From UHGV virus genome UHGV-0117053: DNA of 64,000 bases. The stretch is one strand, 5' to 3'. Source of the stretch: a virus. Shown here one piece after another: positions 9,658 to 64,000 of this stretch; position 1 is the first letter of the stretch, and every line of letters starts with the position of its first letter. A program made the position numbers and the translations under genes. The notes under the pieces were generated by a model that saw only the letters and a program-made list of their open reading frames with translations, made no database searches and had not been told where the DNA came from.

Positions 9658-10020
9658 TCAGCTTTCGTTGGCATTTAACTTCGTCTTTGCTTTCTCCACC
9701 AGCAACTTCCAGATGCCTATTTCATTAGCAGCCGCCTTGATGGCGGCATAAAAAGCATCTTGCTGATCGTAACGCTGAATCTGTTTTTTCAGTTTTGCCT
9801 CCACCAATTTAATTTCATTACGTGCTTTCTGAAGCCGCAGCGCCGCCCGGTTACGTCTGTTCTTGTATAGCGCGTTAATCTCTGATAATTGCTTTAATTT
9901 ACCAGCCTGACTGCGGATTATCGCCTCTCTGACTTCTGCCGTGCGTCTCATCTGATCTCTTAAGAGTTCACCGTTTTCGATAATTCTTTCAAGGTGTTTG
10001 ATGTGATCTGCAACTCTCAT
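9658..10020 (-). CDS. Coiled-coil protein (120 aa), unknown function
   Basis: ATG start overlapping the stop of the upstream ORF; Arg/Lys-rich helical sequence. Confidence 0.55.
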   Translation of the reverse strand: MRVADHIKHLERIIENGELLRDQMRRTAEVREAIIRSQAGKLKQLSEINALYKNRRNRAALRLQKARNEIKLVEAKLKKQIQRYDQQDAFYAAIKAAANEIGIWKLLVEKAKTKLNANES

Positions 10021-11054
10021 ACTTCACCCTCGCTTGTATCGCCAGCATCCACCAGCGGCAATAAAGCCCTGGCCATCTTATGAACCAATAGTGCATCAAT
10101 AATGCCAAGCGTATGCCCCGGCTTAATGTTTAATGCCGCCTCAAGGTGACACCTTTCCAGGCCACTTTTCTCGGCTTGTTTATGATGATCTGGTGTAATA
10201 ACGTCGCCCAAAACACGGCTAATTCTTTCTCGTAATTGCTGGGTGCCAGCACACTTGATCGCTGTATCGTGGAGACGGTTAACCAGTTCGCGATAAACAT
10301 GCGGCTTAATTCGGATACGTTCACCGGTGACGCCCTTTCCTGGTGCTGGCACCGAACTATCCGGAGTTACCGGAGAGTTGCCAGCCAGTCTACGCAAAAC
10401 AGCCTTAACAGCCTCAATACGGTCATCATCGCAATTTTCCAGCGTATCTATGCGGTCGAGCATGATGATGGCGTTATCAATATCAGGATTGCCAGTCCAC
10501 TCATTACCGCGATTGGATTCGGCAGCCTGGTTGCCAGATGCTGGCTGATTGTCGGCTTGGCTATAGCTAACAGCACGGCAGGCATCCTCTACGTTCTTCA
10601 CTGCATCTGCGCAGTAGTTATAGCGATTGCATTCCACTAACTTCTGCTTGAGATTTTCAATTGCTTGCGCGACATCAGCCTGTATTGGCGGAACGGCTGT
10701 TTGCTCTCGAACGTCATTAGTCGCTATCGGTTCTGCTGCCAACTGACTGGCATATTTGTTAATGGTAACGATAAGCTCTTGCTCGGCCTCATCCAGACAA
10801 TCACCGATACCTCGCCTGTCACCGTCAAAATCATCGAAATCGGCACGAATCCTGGCAACCTCCCGGATTGCGGACAACACTTCACCAGGAATAAGCGGAG
10901 AGTTGCCCGATAGTACATTCTGCTCCAGCGATGCCAGAGCAATTCGTGCCAGTTCTTCCGCTTCTTCTGCTGGCAGTACAACGTTGCTACCAGGTCCGTA
11001 TGTTTCGCGCCACTGCTTGATTGTCAGTAGTCGCTCTTTGGTAATAGTGATCAT
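10017..11054 (-). CDS. Acidic protein (345 aa), unknown function
   Basis: ATG start; translationally coupled to flanking ORFs; no motif recognised. Confidence 0.6.
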   Translation of the reverse strand: MITITKERLLTIKQWRETYGPGSNVVLPAEEAEELARIALASLEQNVLSGNSPLIPGEVLSAIREVARIRADFDDFDGDRRGIGDCLDEAEQELIVTINKYASQLAAEPIATNDVREQTAVPPIQADVAQAIENLKQKLVECNRYNYCADAVKNVEDACRAVSYSQADNQPASGNQAAESNRGNEWTGNPDIDNAIIMLDRIDTLENCDDDRIEAVKAVLRRLAGNSPVTPDSSVPAPGKGVTGERIRIKPHVYRELVNRLHDTAIKCAGTQQLRERISRVLGDVITPDHHKQAEKSGLERCHLEAALNIKPGHTLGIIDALLVHKMARALLPLVDAGDTSEGEV

Positions 11055-52259: not shown

Positions 52260-52309
52260 AGTTACGGCCTCGTAAGTTGATAAACAACCTGCGACCCGCT
52301 GCTAAACAG

Positions 52310-52395
52310 GTGGCAGGACGTGACGGGGTTAGCAGACTGGCACTTACGAAACCAGCAGGCCGAAGCCTCCCCATCACGCCCCACCATAATTCGGG
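52310..52395 (-). ncRNA. c4: c4-like antisense RNA (approximate bounds)
   Basis: CUGCUAAC is complementary to two GUUUAGCAG copies, one upstream (about 52468) and one at the icd RBS (about 52301); stable UUCG hairpin nearby. Bounds estimated. Confidence 0.4.
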
Positions 52396-52571
52396 CGTAA
52401 CGTGGTTTACGGACACAAAAATACCGCAATATCGGAAATCTGCGGTTGTCCGCGTAAGTATTCAGGCTGCTAAACCCGGTCGCAGAATTTGCTACGACGG
52501 CGGAACTATAAGCCTGAACGATTAAAAGGTCAATATGATGTGAAAAGATAGCATTCGCGACTTAAAAATAC

Positions 52572-52588
52572 AAATTTATTAGAGCATT
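52572..52588 (-). promoter_or_regulatory. C1 operator-like site of the immunity I promoter
   Basis: AAATTTATTAGAGCATT, 16/17. Confidence 0.75.
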
Positions 52589-52684
52589 GCATGCTTAATA
52601 AATACACAATTGGATCTAATAACCTCTTTTTTTTAAAGGCGAAAATATGTACCCTAAATGAGTTATAAGGCAGGTGAGGTTATA

Positions 52685-53332
52685 ATGAGAAAACTATTAC
52701 TACCGTTATTATTTATGGCTGGGACTGTTAATGCAGCATCAAGCGTAAAGGAGATTTGTACCGATTATACGAAATACCTTGGGCACGTTTACGGCTTTGC
52801 TGTCAGTCAAGACGAATCCATGCGCAAGAAGTTACTGTCAGATATGAAACGCCTTAAACTTTCTGAAGCGATGGTGCAGCAAGAACTGTATAAAGTCGCA
52901 ACCAACGAAAATGCTAAATATCAATATTCTCGCCTGTTAAATCCCGACGCAAACGAGATCAATCGAAGCTCTTTCGATTATATGGTAAAGGCATGCGAAA
53001 CCGCTCCTGATTTTGCTATTCCTAGCTGGGGTGTGCTGGTGGCGAGCAATGCCGTTAATAAAGAAGACGTTGGAAGAAATGGCATTGACTCAATCAGAAA
53101 TGCCCCAGGAATGCGCCATCAAAACGTGCAGGGTACGCTTGAAGAGCGGGCCAGGGGGCCGGGTACAAACTCCCCAATGGGAAACCTCTCACCAGAGGAA
53201 TTGCAAGAGTATAACCAACGGATGGAGCAGTATGAGAAAGCGGCACGCGAACAAATGGAACAACAAAAGAACGGTTCACTTAATACCTTCCAGCAAGGTT
53301 TAAAAGCGCTTAATTTACCCTATGAATGGTAA
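52685..53332 (+). CDS. Secreted periplasmic protein, sim-like (about 215 aa)
   Basis: Signal peptide MRKLLLPLLFMAGTVNA; internal IRNAPGMRHQNVQGTLEERARGPGT duplicates a motif found in Sit. Confidence 0.6.
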   Translation: MRKLLLPLLFMAGTVNAASSVKEICTDYTKYLGHVYGFAVSQDESMRKKLLSDMKRLKLSEAMVQQELYKVATNENAKYQYSRLLNPDANEINRSSFDYMVKACETAPDFAIPSWGVLVASNAVNKEDVGRNGIDSIRNAPGMRHQNVQGTLEERARGPGTNSPMGNLSPEELQEYNQRMEQYEKAAREQMEQQKNGSLNTFQQGLKALNLPYEW

Positions 53333-53393: not shown

Positions 53394-53870
53394 ATGCGCA
53401 TCAAACGATTTTTTCTAATTCTTGCTTTGCTTACTCCATTTTCATCAATGGCAAATGTAAGCAAATGGTCAACCGGCGAGACTCATGGTGTTCGTTCTTA
53501 TGCTGTTTCCAGCAAAGATAATTATACGCTTACATTTGAGTGCGATGTTGGATTTAATAATACGGATCCCAATCAAGTAGGAACACGACTACTCACTCTC
53601 ATGAAAACAGAACCTGGCGGTGAGTCATTTGATGCTAAAAAAGAACAAATAACGCTGAAAGTTGGTGATGATGAATATCCTATCAGTTCTATCGGTTCCT
53701 CTGTGGGTGATAGTTACTGGTATGGTTTTTGGTCAGATACCCCTGATATGGAAGTTAAAACATTCGATGCATACGTAGACGGAAAAAAAATCGCAACATT
53801 TACGCTACGTAAGGCCGCAGAGCTTTTCAACGCGGCACCTGAAGATGGCTGCCTGAAGCGCGCAAAATGA
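53394..53870 (+). CDS. Secreted protein with signal peptide (158 aa)
   Basis: GGAGA RBS; signal peptide MRIKRFFLILALLTPFSSMA. Confidence 0.55.
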   Translation: MRIKRFFLILALLTPFSSMANVSKWSTGETHGVRSYAVSSKDNYTLTFECDVGFNNTDPNQVGTRLLTLMKTEPGGESFDAKKEQITLKVGDDEYPISSIGSSVGDSYWYGFWSDTPDMEVKTFDAYVDGKKIATFTLRKAAELFNAAPEDGCLKRAK

Positions 53871-53876
53871 CCTGTC

Positions 53877-53897
53877 ACAAATGACTACTCGTAGAAT
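53877..53897 (+). promoter_or_regulatory. Putative late promoter motif
   Basis: ACAAATGACTACTCGTAGAAT 32 nt upstream of the next ORF. Confidence 0.4.
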
Positions 53898-56094: not shown

Positions 56095-59000
56095 ATGGAA
56101 AGAAAAAACGCCAACATTGACGATGTGATAAGGACGGTTGAAACCGCCAGCGCAAAAGAGCTGGAAGAGCTTGCAGGTATTCGGGAAGCCGTTGAAGATT
56201 TGAAAGGGGGGCGAGTTGCTACAGTTGATCCTGTCTCTCGCAGTGTGTCGGCATTAAATCGCACAATCGAAAATTCCCGGCCAGACTTTGTGGCCAATGC
56301 GCCATCAGTGGACCCTATTGTTGAGGCAATGAAACGGCTTAATTTAGGGGACGTTTCTCGTGTAGTTCAGGAGGATGTTGCTCTACAGGAACCGCAGGCC
56401 AAATCAACTACGCGAAAGGGTAAAAAACGACGCAAGAAGGCTATAACAGAAGATGTAAAGGCGCAACGGACCGAAGCAGACGAACACGCTCGCGAAATGT
56501 TCGGTCAAAAAGGCGGTGCGCAAAAAAGCCAAAACCAACGCGATGCGCGTGGTCGTTTTATTGGAAAGTCAGGGAGTAAGGCCGCAGCGGAAGATGCCCG
56601 TGCTGAACGTGCTGAAAAGGCCAGGCGCAAAGAGGATGATGAGCGTCTAAATGCTGAATCAGGTTTATTAAAAAAACTGTCAAAAGTAGCTGAAGGCATA
56701 GGTAACCCTTCAGAGACTCGTGCCGTCGATGCGTTAGGTTATGCCGTTGCTGGTCCATTGTGGGCAGCAGGGAAGGAGCTTGGCGGGATATCAAAAGAAG
56801 TTGGTGGATCGCTTAATGGTGCCAGAAAGTCTATTGCCGATGTGATTCGTGGCAATGACGATAACAGCCGTAGAAAAGGTTTTTTTAGGCGTAAATCGCA
56901 AAATAGTGCCGATGTCGTTCAGGTTAACACCCAAAAACGGACGGTTCAGGAACTTCAGGAGCAGACCAGCGAAATTAAAGAGGGCAATGACAAGATTCTC
57001 CGCGCTCTTGATCAGATAGCCAAAAACACCGGGAAAAAGAAGGGCGGCTTGCTGTCCAAACTATTTAGCCTGTTAGGGAAGGGGGCCGGTGGCGTCGCGT
57101 CGTTGTTAATGGGGCGTGGCATGCTGAAAAAAGCTGGAGCACTCGCTTTTGGCGCTCTGGGGGCAAAGAAACTTGTAGGAGTGCTACGCGGTGGTGGCAA
57201 GAAGACTCTCGCCCATGAAGGCGGAGATTTGGCTGCCCGGGCAGCAGGTAAACTTGGATTAAAGGCAGTTGGTAAAGGGGCGTTACGCGCAATTCCCCTA
57301 GTCGGCACAGTGGCTGGAGGTATTTATGATGCGGTAACCGGTTGGAATGATACAGAAGCGCAACGTCGAGCGTTTGGGCTTAAATCAGGACAAGATCCAT
57401 CATTCCAGCAAAAAGCCGCTTATACGTTAGCTAATGTTCTTGATATGGGGGGACTGGTATCTGGTATTAGCAGCGCCATTGGTGAGGTTCTCAAATCACT
57501 TGGATTTGAGGATATCGGCAATATGTTGCAATCATTTTCGACGGAAAGTATTGCCCAGGCCATTGATAGTGGGATTACCAACTTAGAAACATATATTTCT
57601 AACCTTGGCGACACCATTTCTACCAAGTTCGATGATTACACAGCAAAGATTGGTGATGCTGTTTCAGCATGGTTTAGCGATACATCTAATAAGCTGCTTG
57701 AAAAGCTGGATGCCATCAAAGACTTCTTTACTGTCGATAACCTGAAACAGGTTTTCAGTGATGCAATTGATAGTGCAATTGATTTCATTAAGAACCCAGG
57801 GAAACACATTAAAGAGGCGGCTGGTAATATTTGGGATGGGGTTAAAAATTTACCAGGTAAAGCATTAGATGCAGCGGTTGATGCCGTTAAAAATACCCCT
57901 GCGGCAATGATTGTATCAAAAATACCCAATCCGATCGGCGAGGCTAATGCGAAAGAAATCACTCCAGAGTTAAAAGCTCCGGTTAATAGCCATCAGGAGA
58001 CGTCTGATTCTAAAACTGAATCCGATGCCAAACAGAGTAATATTGCTACCCGCGTGATAAATGCGGCACTGGACACAGCGAAAGATAGCAATAAAACAGT
58101 TAAACAAACTGCCAATCAGATTATCAATGCAAATGCCGTAGAAACGGGCAATAGCGCGTTGCAGAAAATTGATAAAGCTATTGGTCAAAATAGCTCGTCA
58201 TCATCGTCGCTTAATACCACTGGTACCAGGAATGACATTCAGAAAGCTGCGGATACTTACAACAATGGCAACTTAGATGTAAAAGTCGGAAGTCTTGGCG
58301 CTGAAGGTAAGGCAAATCTCGATAAGTTGGCTCCGTATTTTGCCGAACTAGAGAATAAATACGGTCTTCCAGAAGGCACTCTTTACGCGATTGCTGCAAC
58401 TGAATCTGGTGGTAATCCGTATGCAAAATCCCAAACCGGTGCTCTGGGGATGTTTCAGTTCACGGGGATTGCTCGTGAAGAGACTGGCTTAGCTGAAGGT
58501 GAATCGTTTGATCCTGTGAAATCGGCAGAAGCTGCGGCTCTTCTCATGAGCAAGTATCTGAAGCAAGCCAATGGAGACTTAAACGAGGCCATCACTGCAT
58601 ATAATGCTGGGTTTGGCACTATTAATAAGTGGAAAAAAGGTACAGGTGACTTATCGAAAGAAAACCGTGAGTACGCGATCAAGGTCAATACTCATCGTGC
58701 TCGCTATTTAGGTGGTGAAATCTATACACCTGGAGCAGGAGCACAGGGTGGGGCGCAATATGGAGTGAGGGGACCACTGCCTGATAACGCTGTTATCGAT
58801 CAGTATACTGGCCTGGCGTTTACCCCTGGTGATAGCCCGTTTGAGAAAGGCGGTCTGGTCGACAAAATCGGCAATGCTGTTGGCGTTAACGATCTGGTCA
58901 ACAAATTCATGAATGGCCGGGGGATGCGTCGGGAAGTCGTTCAGGGAACGCTAGAAGAACGTGCACGAGGGAAGGGGACCGCAACAGCAGCTGGCAATGT

Positions 59001-59487
59001 GTATGTTGATACCCCGATGCCAGTTGAAGAGGCGCGTCCGGTGGCCAGCAACTCAAGTTACTTTGACCAGCTCGGCGCACAAATGGGGATTGATGGACTA
59101 TTCGATAAACTCCGCAACTCGCCGGGGATGCGGAAAAATAATGCGCCTGAACCAGCCTCCACGTCCCAGGTGACGACTGCCGCCAACGATTTGCAGCAAC
59201 CAACCGGTCGTATGCAGATAGACGGACAGGTTATTAGTGACCTTGGTGGCTCCGGTGCCAAGCCGACAATGCAGTTGGCTGATAATACCGTTTCACTTGA
59301 TGGTGAAACGAAGCGGCTGTTTGCGCAGATGACCTCATTGCTTGCCAGGATTGAAGAGCACACCAAAGACTCGGCGAAAGGCCAGGGAACTGTCGTAAAG
59401 GTCAGCACGCCTCAGCCGGGCGTTATGCGCACGGTACCACTGTCAATTGATGATCCGTTGATGAATGACTACGCGAGAGTTGATTGA
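56095..59487 (+). CDS. sit: Structural injection transglycosylase / tape-measure-like protein Sit (1130 aa)
   Basis: Lytic transglycosylase core (AIAATESGGNPYAKSQTGALGMFQF); Ala/Gly/Lys-rich repeats; size fits P1 Sit. Confidence 0.85.
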   Translation: MERKNANIDDVIRTVETASAKELEELAGIREAVEDLKGGRVATVDPVSRSVSALNRTIENSRPDFVANAPSVDPIVEAMKRLNLGDVSRVVQEDVALQEPQAKSTTRKGKKRRKKAITEDVKAQRTEADEHAREMFGQKGGAQKSQNQRDARGRFIGKSGSKAAAEDARAERAEKARRKEDDERLNAESGLLKKLSKVAEGIGNPSETRAVDALGYAVAGPLWAAGKELGGISKEVGGSLNGARKSIADVIRGNDDNSRRKGFFRRKSQNSADVVQVNTQKRTVQELQEQTSEIKEGNDKILRALDQIAKNTGKKKGGLLSKLFSLLGKGAGGVASLLMGRGMLKKAGALAFGALGAKKLVGVLRGGGKKTLAHEGGDLAARAAGKLGLKAVGKGALRAIPLVGTVAGGIYDAVTGWNDTEAQRRAFGLKSGQDPSFQQKAAYTLANVLDMGGLVSGISSAIGEVLKSLGFEDIGNMLQSFSTESIAQAIDSGITNLETYISNLGDTISTKFDDYTAKIGDAVSAWFSDTSNKLLEKLDAIKDFFTVDNLKQVFSDAIDSAIDFIKNPGKHIKEAAGNIWDGVKNLPGKALDAAVDAVKNTPAAMIVSKIPNPIGEANAKEITPELKAPVNSHQETSDSKTESDAKQSNIATRVINAALDTAKDSNKTVKQTANQIINANAVETGNSALQKIDKAIGQNSSSSSSLNTTGTRNDIQKAADTYNNGNLDVKVGSLGAEGKANLDKLAPYFAELENKYGLPEGTLYAIAATESGGNPYAKSQTGALGMFQFTGIAREETGLAEGESFDPVKSAEAAALLMSKYLKQANGDLNEAITAYNAGFGTINKWKKGTGDLSKENREYAIKVNTHRARYLGGEIYTPGAGAQGGAQYGVRGPLPDNAVIDQYTGLAFTPGDSPFEKGGLVDKIGNAVGVNDLVNKFMNGRGMRREVVQGTLEERARGKGTATAAGNVYVDTPMPVEEARPVASNSSYFDQLGAQMGIDGLFDKLRNSPGMRKNNAPEPASTSQVTTAANDLQQPTGRMQIDGQVISDLGGSGAKPTMQLADNTVSLDGETKRLFAQMTSLLARIEEHTKDSAKGQGTVVKVSTPQPGVMRTVPLSIDDPLMNDYARVD

Positions 59488-62633: not shown

Positions 62634-64000
62634 ATGAATGACGTTACAGTTGTTACATCGGTTACTTACCCATCACCCGAGTCGTTGGCTCTGGTGGCTG
62701 ATGTGCAATACCACGAACCATATCTGTCAGCCGCTCTAAACCGAAAATTCAGGGGAATTGTTGACCCGGGATTTTATGCTGGTTTCTTGCCTAAGCCTGG
62801 CGGTGGAATGAACCTGTTAATCACCTCAGTGGATGGAGATAAAACCGCTGGCGCGGCGTCAGTGGATATTGGTGAATTCTACCAGGTAACTATTCAGCAT
62901 CGTAAGGATATCTCTCTTGCACTTAACGCAGGCAAGAAATATGCAATTGTGCTGAAGGGAAGATACCTTCTTGGAGAAGATACCTATCAGGTGAATACCG
63001 CGTCACATATTCATGCAGCTGAATTTGTTGCCAGAACCTATACCGATTCATATCAGTTAGGTGATGGGGAACTGCTGGTTTGTACGGTGAATATCCCTGC
63101 TGGCGTATCTACCATTACTCAAGAGATGATTGATACATCCGAGCGTATCAACCGCACGATCGGCATTGATATTTCAGACTCTGTAACCAGTACCAGAAGT
63201 GATGTTGCTGCGAGTTCGCTGGCAGTTAAAAAAGCCTACGATCTGGCGAAAAGCAAGTATACGGCGCAGGATGCAAGCACAACGCAAAAGGGATTAGTTC
63301 AGCTCAGTAGTGCCACTAACAGTACGTCCGAAGTGCTGGCCGCCACACCGAAAGCTGTCAAGGCTGCATATGACCTGGCTAACGGGAAGTATACAGCCCA
63401 GGATGCAACCACGACACAAAAAGGGATAGTTCAGCTCAGTAGCGACACCAACAGCACTTCTGAAACATTAGCTGCAACTCCAAAAGCGGTTAAAGCTGCA
63501 TACGATCTAGCAGCCGGAAAGGCACCATCCAGTCATACACATCCCTGGAATCAGATCACTGGTGTGCCAACAGCTTCATTGACAGCGAAAGGCATCACTC
63601 AGCTCAGTAGTGCCACTAACAGCACGTCTGAAGTGCTGGCCGCCACACCGAAAGCTGTCAAGGCTGCATATGACCTGGCTAACGGGAAGTATACAGCCCA
63701 GGATGCAACCACGACACAAAAAGGGATAGTTCAGCTCAGCAGTGCTACCAATAGCACGTCCGAAGTGCTGGCCGCCACACCGAAAGCTGTCAAGGCTGCA
63801 TATGATTTGGCTAATGGAAAGCAAGCGGCAGACGCTACGCTCACTGCTCTAGCGGCACTAGCTACAGCAGCAGATAAACTCCCTTATTTCACAGGTGTTG
63901 ATCGTGCCGCGTTAACTGCATTGACAAGTGTTGGACGCGCCATTCTTGGTAAGACCAGTATTCAGAGCGTTCTTGATTACCTTGGTTTGGGGGAAGGCTC
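62634..64000 (+). CDS. S: Tail-fibre protein S, N-terminal 455 codons; continues past the window end
   Basis: AAGGA RBS, ATG 62634; MNDVTVVTSVTYPSPESL...; four copies of the repeat TQKGIVQLSSATNSTSEVLAATPKAVKAAYDLANGK. Confidence 0.85.
   Translation, partial: MNDVTVVTSVTYPSPESLALVADVQYHEPYLSAALNRKFRGIVDPGFYAGFLPKPGGGMNLLITSVDGDKTAGAASVDIGEFYQVTIQHRKDISLALNAGKKYAIVLKGRYLLGEDTYQVNTASHIHAAEFVARTYTDSYQLGDGELLVCTVNIPAGVSTITQEMIDTSERINRTIGIDISDSVTSTRSDVAASSLAVKKAYDLAKSKYTAQDASTTQKGLVQLSSATNSTSEVLAATPKAVKAAYDLANGKYTAQDATTTQKGIVQLSSDTNSTSETLAATPKAVKAAYDLAAGKAPSSHTHPWNQITGVPTASLTAKGITQLSSATNSTSEVLAATPKAVKAAYDLANGKYTAQDATTTQKGIVQLSSATNSTSEVLAATPKAVKAAYDLANGKQAADATLTALAALATAADKLPYFTGVDRAALTALTSVGRAILGKTSIQSVLDYLGLGEG
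63290..63830 (+). repeat. In-frame tandem repeats (about 117-126 bp) within the tail-fibre gene
   Basis: Near-identical DNA blocks CAGCTCAGTAG...GCTGCATATGACCTGGCTAACGGGAAG recur at about 63300, 63430, 63600 and 63720. Confidence 0.8.

Follow-up and report, generated by a model that had tools for sequence, protein, structure and literature searches.

An exported protein encoded at the sim locus of a P1-like phage shares a linear motif with the tape-measure protein Sit: a candidate superinfection-exclusion factor

Bacteriophage P1 has long served as a model, and P1-like phage-plasmids are frequent carriers of resistance genes in Enterobacteriaceae. Two reports, citing Kliem and Dreiseikelmann (1989) and Maillou and Dreiseikelmann (1990), describe sim as the superinfection-exclusion determinant of P1 (PMC9177967, PMC2409434). 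Neither the locus nor exclusion in the periplasm as a concept is new. Sit is the P1 tape-measure protein and is ejected (PMC9024508). It is not resolved in cryo-electron microscopy maps (PMC12810830), and its identity as an ejected tape-measure protein with an SLT domain is supported by both studies (PMC9024508, PMC12810830). Here, we analyze a stretch of 64,000 nucleotides of the virus genome UHGV-0117053 (the window, to which all coordinates refer unless stated otherwise), which represents a P1-like phage (Punavirus). At the position of the P1 simABC locus, its plus strand carries an open reading frame (ORF), hereafter ORF1 (52685..53332), encoding a protein of 215 residues, or of 224 residues if read from an upstream ATG at 52658. 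Judged by its sequence, ORF1 is the intact form of P1 simA, and its product shares a conserved peptide with Sit.

BLASTP aligns residues 122-168 of ORF1 with residues 927-969 of Sit (23 of 47 positions identical, E = 5e-9), and Sit is the sole significant match of ORF1 (E = 2.5e-7) among the 523 six-frame ORFs of at least 50 residues in the window. The relationship is reciprocal at the level of PHROG profiles, phrog_2533 matching ORF1 (8e-8) and phrog_3933 matching Sit (3.9e-6) over the same 42 residues. In ORF1, the Sit-like linear motif detected by BLASTP and PHROG, IRNAPGMRHQNVQGTLEERARGPGT, spans residues 135-161 (53087..53167, plus strand) and lies in a predicted disordered linker. The corresponding segment of Sit, found by BLASTP and the window search and hereafter called copy 1 (...NKFMNGRGMRREVVQGTLEERARGKGT..., residues 927-969, 58873..59001, plus strand), includes GMRREVVQGTLEERARGKGT at residues 943-962 (58921-58980). 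The common motif can be written as N-x-x-G-M-R-x-x-V-x-G-T-L-x-E-R-A-x-G-x-G, and 16 of 20 residues are identical in the core GMR..V.GTLEERARG.GT.

The initial annotation of this DNA had reported the duplication, together with an LRNSPGMR close to the Sit copy (near residue 1006, ~59110-59133), and had called for a pairwise alignment of the two proteins. That alignment and the window-wide and profile searches bear the duplication out, and the positions given were approximately right. The concern that the shared motif might be a common low-complexity segment of unrelated proteins did not materialize, as the motif is complex and, where detectable, is seen only in two families: a regular-expression scan of 148 proteins recovered it only in the SimA-like family, to which ORF1 belongs, and in P1-like Sit. 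A motif-only profile run against a large protein database returned simA fragments alone, a weak negative given that the tool appears to favour proteins of similar length.

Of the 16 identical core residues, 11 are specified by different codons, and a DNA alignment of the two motif copies shows modest identity with many synonymous differences. The copies therefore seem to be old and held by selection on the peptide, which points to long purifying selection rather than recent copying; recent gene conversion between ORF1 and sit was ruled out by the same modest identity and synonymous differences. Both the ORF1-type and the Sit copy are also present in diverged Salmonella and Klebsiella phage-plasmids. 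The motif-coding stretch of ORF1 (53090-53190) has a GC content of 57%, as against 42% in the rest of ORF1 and 41% in the downstream ORF2, and the matching sit segment has 55%; this contrast fits a segment of other origin within a low-GC cassette. Alternatively, the motif might be a recombination scar without function, left when mosaic exchange at a hot spot picked up part of sit. The compositional difference is in its favour, as is the strong mosaicism of the locus, with several junctions inside ORF1 and one right after the motif at 53164. However, the amino acids were kept while the codons changed, the motif is retained in family members of only ~50% identity as well as in the far more divergent P0150, the most divergent member, which retains NAPGMRHQAVKGSMAERARGDGT, and its N, M and R (and, in nearly all members, its G) are invariant or nearly so. 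We regard a mere scar as very improbable.

The sit gene (56095..59487, plus strand) encodes a tape-measure or injection transglycosylase of 1130 residues, which matches phrog_2533 over its full length and contains a Pfam SLT domain at residues 748-857 (E = 8.9e-27). Copy 1 follows this domain by ~70 residues and is among the best-conserved C-terminal stretches of Sit in P1-type and D6-type fragments, including those with a different SLT subtype. In the alignment of C-terminal fragments, G204 is invariant and M205, R206, V209, G212, R217, A218, G220 and G222 are at least 90% conserved. A second copy, GLFDKLRNSPGMRK (residues 1003-1016, 59101..59142, plus strand), around the LRNSPGMR mentioned above, does not reach significance by itself (E = 0.45) and falls within an insertion of ~68 residues (residues ~970-1038, 59005-59210) that is present in P1-type Sit only and absent from the D6 type. 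The insertion repeats a helix plus the NxxGMR element (GVNDLVNKFMNGRGMR and GIDGLFDKLRNSPGMR), so that the motif's first half appears to have been duplicated within Sit. Elsewhere in Sit, residues ~315-465 (57040-57440) are rich in glycine and moderately hydrophobic (as in LSKLFSLLGKGAGGVASLL and ALRAIPLVGTVAGGIYDAV) and could be the membrane-inserting part of the protein, comparable to the transmembrane segment of the T4 tape-measure protein.

Structural models place the motif in a flexible context on both sides. In the AlphaFold2 (AF2) model of Sit residues 740-1130, the SLT domain is predicted confidently, while the region around the motif has a predicted local distance difference test (pLDDT) score below 50 and is predicted to be flexible. 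In the model of ORF1, built from the family alignment, the linker that holds the motif (residues 138-168) likewise scores below 50 except at two single residues, with a short helix at LEERAR. The segment thus looks like a short linear motif, and its location in a disordered linker is as expected for a docking motif. Cleavage of an OmpT type at the dibasic GMR-R or GMR-K was considered and rejected, since D6-type Sit and SimA have GMRH or GMRQ.

The helical, exported nature of the small ORF1 protein and the proximity of the Sit motif to the SLT domain bring another mechanism into view. Spackle of phage T4 is a small helical phage protein with a signal peptide that inhibits the gp5 lysozyme in the periplasm. 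By analogy, the helical domain of ORF1 might inhibit the SLT domain of an incoming Sit, the shared peptide being a copy of a segment that contacts this domain in cis. The Sit model does not confidently place the motif against the SLT domain, being too uncertain elsewhere. Moreover, conservation of the motif is just as strong where Sit has another SLT subtype. We consider inhibition of this kind quite unlikely, though less so than a scar. In the PDB and BFVD libraries, ORF1 showed no fold similarity to Spackle or to another solved helical periplasmic hydrolase inhibitor.

The start of ORF1 at 52685 is preceded by a GGTGAGG Shine-Dalgarno sequence and is supported by the alignment, in which the Salmonella and Klebsiella homologues start at the equivalent position. 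The profile phrog_3933 covers the protein over its full length (E = 5.3e-137), and some database sources name its homologues 'simA domain protein'. The N terminus, MRKLLLPLLFMAGTVNA (52685..52735, plus strand), is a predicted Sec signal peptide, in which a basic n-region leads into a hydrophobic core and V-N-A forms the cleavage site before ASS; N16, A17 and S19 are invariant across the SimA-like family. There is no lipobox in the cleavage region (TVNA-ASS, the first Cys being residue 25), which sets the protein apart from lipoprotein-type exclusion proteins such as T5 Llp, lambdoid Cor and TP-J34 Ltp, and no transmembrane segment is predicted after the signal peptide. The product appears, from these features, to be exported, is predicted to be soluble and would reside in the periplasm. 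The signal-peptide protein proposed earlier for 52685-53332, with processing at VNA-ASS, is in this respect well founded: the ORF exists and has a Sec-type N terminus.

The N-terminal part of the protein is a conserved helical domain (residues 21-125, 52745..53059, plus strand), modelled with pLDDT of at least 90 in each ten-residue block, with invariant Cys25 and Cys104 that likely form a disulfide. Behind the linker, a C-terminal helical tail (residues 170-208, 53192..53308, plus strand; AF2 helices 170-196 and 199-208) is exchanged for other modules in relatives. Neither sequence nor fold similarity to ORF1 was detected in the PDB and BFVD libraries, and NCBIfam yielded nothing useful. A Pfam match of PTPlike_phytase to the helical domain (26.7 bits, with a cut-off of 27) was dismissed as noise. 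An SLT domain was not found in ORF1 and only 42-47 residues align with Sit, so that ORF1 is not itself a member of the Sit or tape-measure family. An alternative plus-strand frame of 96 codons (53013-53303) overlaps the motif and the tail. Variants of 205 residues (P0002, P0004, P0005 and P0008, with 1-2 member sequences each) enter this alternative frame at differing points near the G-rich 'CCAGGGGGCCGGG' (~53140-53155) and are probably assembly or frameshift errors or pseudogenes.

According to the P1 annotation, the simABC locus is bounded on one side by Oc4 and the divergent c4 promoters and on the other by the late promoter LPsit and pmgC. ORF1 occupies this very position in the window, between the c4/Oc4 control region and pmgC. 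The Oc4 (Op51) equivalent, a C1 operator (AAATTTATTAGAGCATT, 52572..52588), was carried over from the P1 annotation through a near-identical alignment and has the divergent c4 promoters on one side and the predicted PsimA promoter on the other. The C4 antisense RNA (52306..52391, minus strand; Rfam RF01695, 70.8 bits) and its a1b1 targets (52459-52511) mark immunity region I, which had correctly been named as the neighbour of ORF1.

P1 SimA (P1_gp043) has only 52 residues, of which the first 45 are identical (45/45) to the 224-residue reading of ORF1. The P1 DNA (L001, 2060-2218) is near-identical to the window from 52658 up to 52824 and diverges thereafter. Together, these observations identify P1 simA as the 5' remnant of a larger gene, ending at 52 residues because the simB-simC cassette replaced the sequence downstream of about codon 46. 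The initial annotation had thus recognized the secreted protein with the Sit motif but had missed both the simABC locus of P1 and the identity of ORF1 as full-length simA.

ORF1 is followed by ORF2 (53394..53870, plus strand), which encodes a second protein, of 158 residues, with a signal-peptide-like N terminus (MRIKRFFLILALLTPFSSMA, followed by NVS); the second secreted protein that had been proposed at this position is therefore real. ORF2 belongs to phrog_3429, has conserved Cys50 and Cys153, and is 34% identical (E = 3e-33) to a PF27224 (YfjT) gene at the same position of a Salmonella locus (L003, 11150-11650). As the local copy of Pfam gave no match, the assignment to YfjT is indirect. 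YfjT is an uncharacterized protein of E. coli K-12 that appears only in passing in the literature found. YfjT-like equivalents of ORF2 also occur at loci L005, L007 and L013.

Of 47 loci with a SimA-like gene of at least 153 residues, 46 have a YfjT-like ORF2 behind it, the lone exception (L055) having a SimC-like gene instead. Since this pairing persists while ORF2 identity ranges from 28% to 100%, the SimA-like and YfjT-like genes seem to form a conserved module. Conversely, a simA remnant of 48 residues is followed by simB and simC in all 19 loci where it was found. SimA-like/YfjT-like and simB/simC are alternative cassettes, and ORF1 and ORF2 show no homology to SimC or SimB of P1; SimB and SimC do have hydrophobic, signal-like N termini in their translations. 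P7 (L014, 1073-2137) carries neither cassette and encodes at this site a DUF5384 protein and a lipoprotein, for each of which a signal peptide is annotated. The RefSeq product name of that lipoprotein, 'DNA methyltransferase', is at odds with its own note, which gives an outer membrane lipoprotein.

The cassettes share a fixed right junction (53853..53877), just upstream of LPsit and pmgC, at which similarity resumes in P1, P7, L013, L039 and L055. Left junctions vary, lying at 52586 in P7 (at the C1 operator, so that even the start of simA is gone), at 52824 in P1, at 52902 in L013 and L055, and at 53164 in a form of 163 residues. Alternating cassettes and a fixed right junction suggest that sim is a swap site for genes of exported proteins, which fits an account that counts it among the eight variable (cargo) regions of low GC content in P1-like plasmids (PMC9603915).

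The SimA-like family comprises 28 clusters in 5.8 billion proteins, from Enterobacteriaceae throughout and several on contigs of ~90 kb. A profile search of 1.84 billion representatives gave 11 matches, all of them family members or fragments, with no remote homologues of the N-terminal domain beyond the family. In PLSDB, 267 plasmids were matched, of which 263 are predicted to be non-mobilizable, and 84 hold at least 80% of the protein. Other PLSDB plasmids encode residues 1-161 with a different tail, and among the matches sampled many cover only residues 1-48, as in P1. A scan of genome contigs yielded only 4 loci. The 163-residue variant is common (L039-L051, IMG/VR loci, ~10001-10492). It ends right after the motif (RARGPGVAP, then stop); next come a YfjT-like gene, divergent in sequence, and a gene whose product, of ~344 residues, has an SH3 domain. 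The element N-(A/S)-(P/R)-G-M-R-(H/Q)-Q hardly varies across the family. Two kinds of sequence come after it: the Sit-like V-x-G-T-L-x-x-R-A-x-G-x-G, continued by a coiled coil or by nothing, or else one to two Cys-bracketed modules of ~35 residues.

These properties of locus and family bear on a further alternative, namely that ORF1 is an envelope 'moron' serving the host or a housekeeping task, and that the peptide is common to both proteins because each depends for its folding, anchoring or turnover on one shared helper in the periplasm, such as a chaperone, a protease or peptidoglycan. A YfjT-like partner gene, the position of sim among the variable cargo regions and the fact that some family members do without the motif's second half would all fit such a role, as would the PADLOC-DB defence models, none of which matched ORF1, ORF2, SimB or SimC at E ≤ 0.1. 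On the other hand, the few matches among the 1.84 billion representatives confine the family to P1-like elements, the gene always resides at the exclusion locus, where it alternates with simB and simC, and the peptide was seen in no host protein found. A moron is in our view unlikely, albeit the strongest of the three alternatives.

A role of ORF1 in superinfection exclusion is plausible from its locus, its predicted export and the conservation of the motif, and the narrower proposal that the motif is used in this role is the one we tentatively favour, at slightly less than an even chance. This reading takes the protein to be expressed in lysogens. In the mechanism envisaged, ORF1 in the periplasm of the carrier cell would present the Sit peptide, which would compete with the Sit protein of an incoming P1-like phage for the peptide's partner. 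Candidates for this partner are a periplasmic or inner-membrane factor of the host, the tail tip, or Sit itself through another of its parts. Entry of the genome would be blocked once the phage has adsorbed, and P1-like relatives, heteroimmune ones included, would be excluded by mimicry of a tape-measure motif. There is a precedent in T4 Imm, which excludes by binding the tape-measure protein (bioRxiv 10.64898/2026.03.06.709160). Both the exclusion activity and the competition are what we infer, and exclusion specifically through periplasmic display of a Sit docking peptide seems to us possible but rather doubtful.

Several observations weigh against an exclusion role of ORF1. The exclusion function of sim has been credited to simC (PMC2409434), whose product is unlike ORF1 and unlike Sit, and no experimental phenotype is on record for either the ORF1 protein or P1 simA. 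In 6 of 16 aligned family members only N-x-x-G-M-R-x-Q is kept, Cys-bracketed modules replacing QGTLEERARG, from which it follows that the full motif is not essential to the family. The PsimA promoter, predicted in the P1 annotation, is weak, adjoins the C1 operator and was missed by a consensus scan. Finally, motif pairs from the same genome can agree, with LEERARG in both E. coli proteins and NAPGMRHQ in both proteins of L005, but Salmonella has LAERAYG in Sit and LMERARG or LESRARG in the SimA-like protein, so that over this short segment there is no clear within-genome co-variation. The superinfection-exclusion candidate put forward in the initial annotation accordingly gains from the sim locus, the export signal and the conservation of the motif, and loses from the incomplete motif in part of the family and from the credit given to simC; the decoy mechanism suggested there is conjectural.

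Further along the plus strand, ORF1 and ORF2 are followed by pmgC, tub, pmgB, sit, pmgA, bplA, gene 16 and R, while the minus strand of the window carries repL, kilA, ant1 and icd in addition to the C4 RNA. The nearest DNA relative for the region is phage vB_EcoM-Ro157c2YLVW (96.4% identity), in which ORF1 and ORF2 are annotated as hypothetical. At the window's end, within the tail-fibre region, two minus-strand ORFs (63294-63824) carry the same peptide (..QVICSLDSFRCGGQHFGR..), suggesting a tandemly repeated DNA segment.

In the literature searched, which did not extend to the P1 genome paper (Lobocka et al. 2004), there was no mention of the motif shared with Sit, of simA as a stub or of the pairing of SimA-like and YfjT-like genes. 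With P1 simA being only the stub of a larger gene of wide occurrence, the sim locus has to be read differently. A motif common only to ORF1-type proteins and Sit offers a precise target for mutagenesis in both proteins and a bait for the entry partner, and thus bears on how P1 DNA crosses the periplasm and on how sim excludes superinfection. If the proposed mimicry is true, ORF1 would be the first exclusion factor acting as a tape-measure decoy, and the motif would mark the stretch of Sit required for P1 to pass through the periplasm and the inner membrane, and thereby lead to the partner required for this step.

Compared with P1 SimA, annotated as a 'putative superimmunity accessory function', ORF1 has the same locus, upstream region and signal peptide, but runs on for another 170 residues, including the Sit motif. 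P1 SimC resembles ORF1 in locus, orientation and signal-like N terminus, as an alternative cassette at one site. The two are nevertheless dissimilar in sequence (best BLASTP E = 28; phrog_14355 for SimC and phrog_3933 for ORF1), SimC is without a Sit-like motif, and an exclusion role has been attributed in the literature to SimC and none to ORF1. Among systems outside P1, T4 Imm, HK97 gp15 and TP-J34 Ltp are envelope proteins of phage origin that act after adsorption to halt genome entry, an activity only proposed for ORF1. Exclusion by gp15 hinges on features of the incoming phage tail (PMC3594210), and Ltp is a surface lipoprotein (PMC3952083). Whereas Imm and gp15 are membrane proteins and Ltp is a lipoprotein, ORF1 is soluble by prediction and carries a peptide of Sit. 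To our knowledge, none of these three proteins has been reported to contain a copy of a tape-measure segment. Spackle, lastly, is like ORF1 small, helical and equipped with a signal peptide, and ORF1 could similarly act on the part of the injection apparatus that degrades the cell wall.
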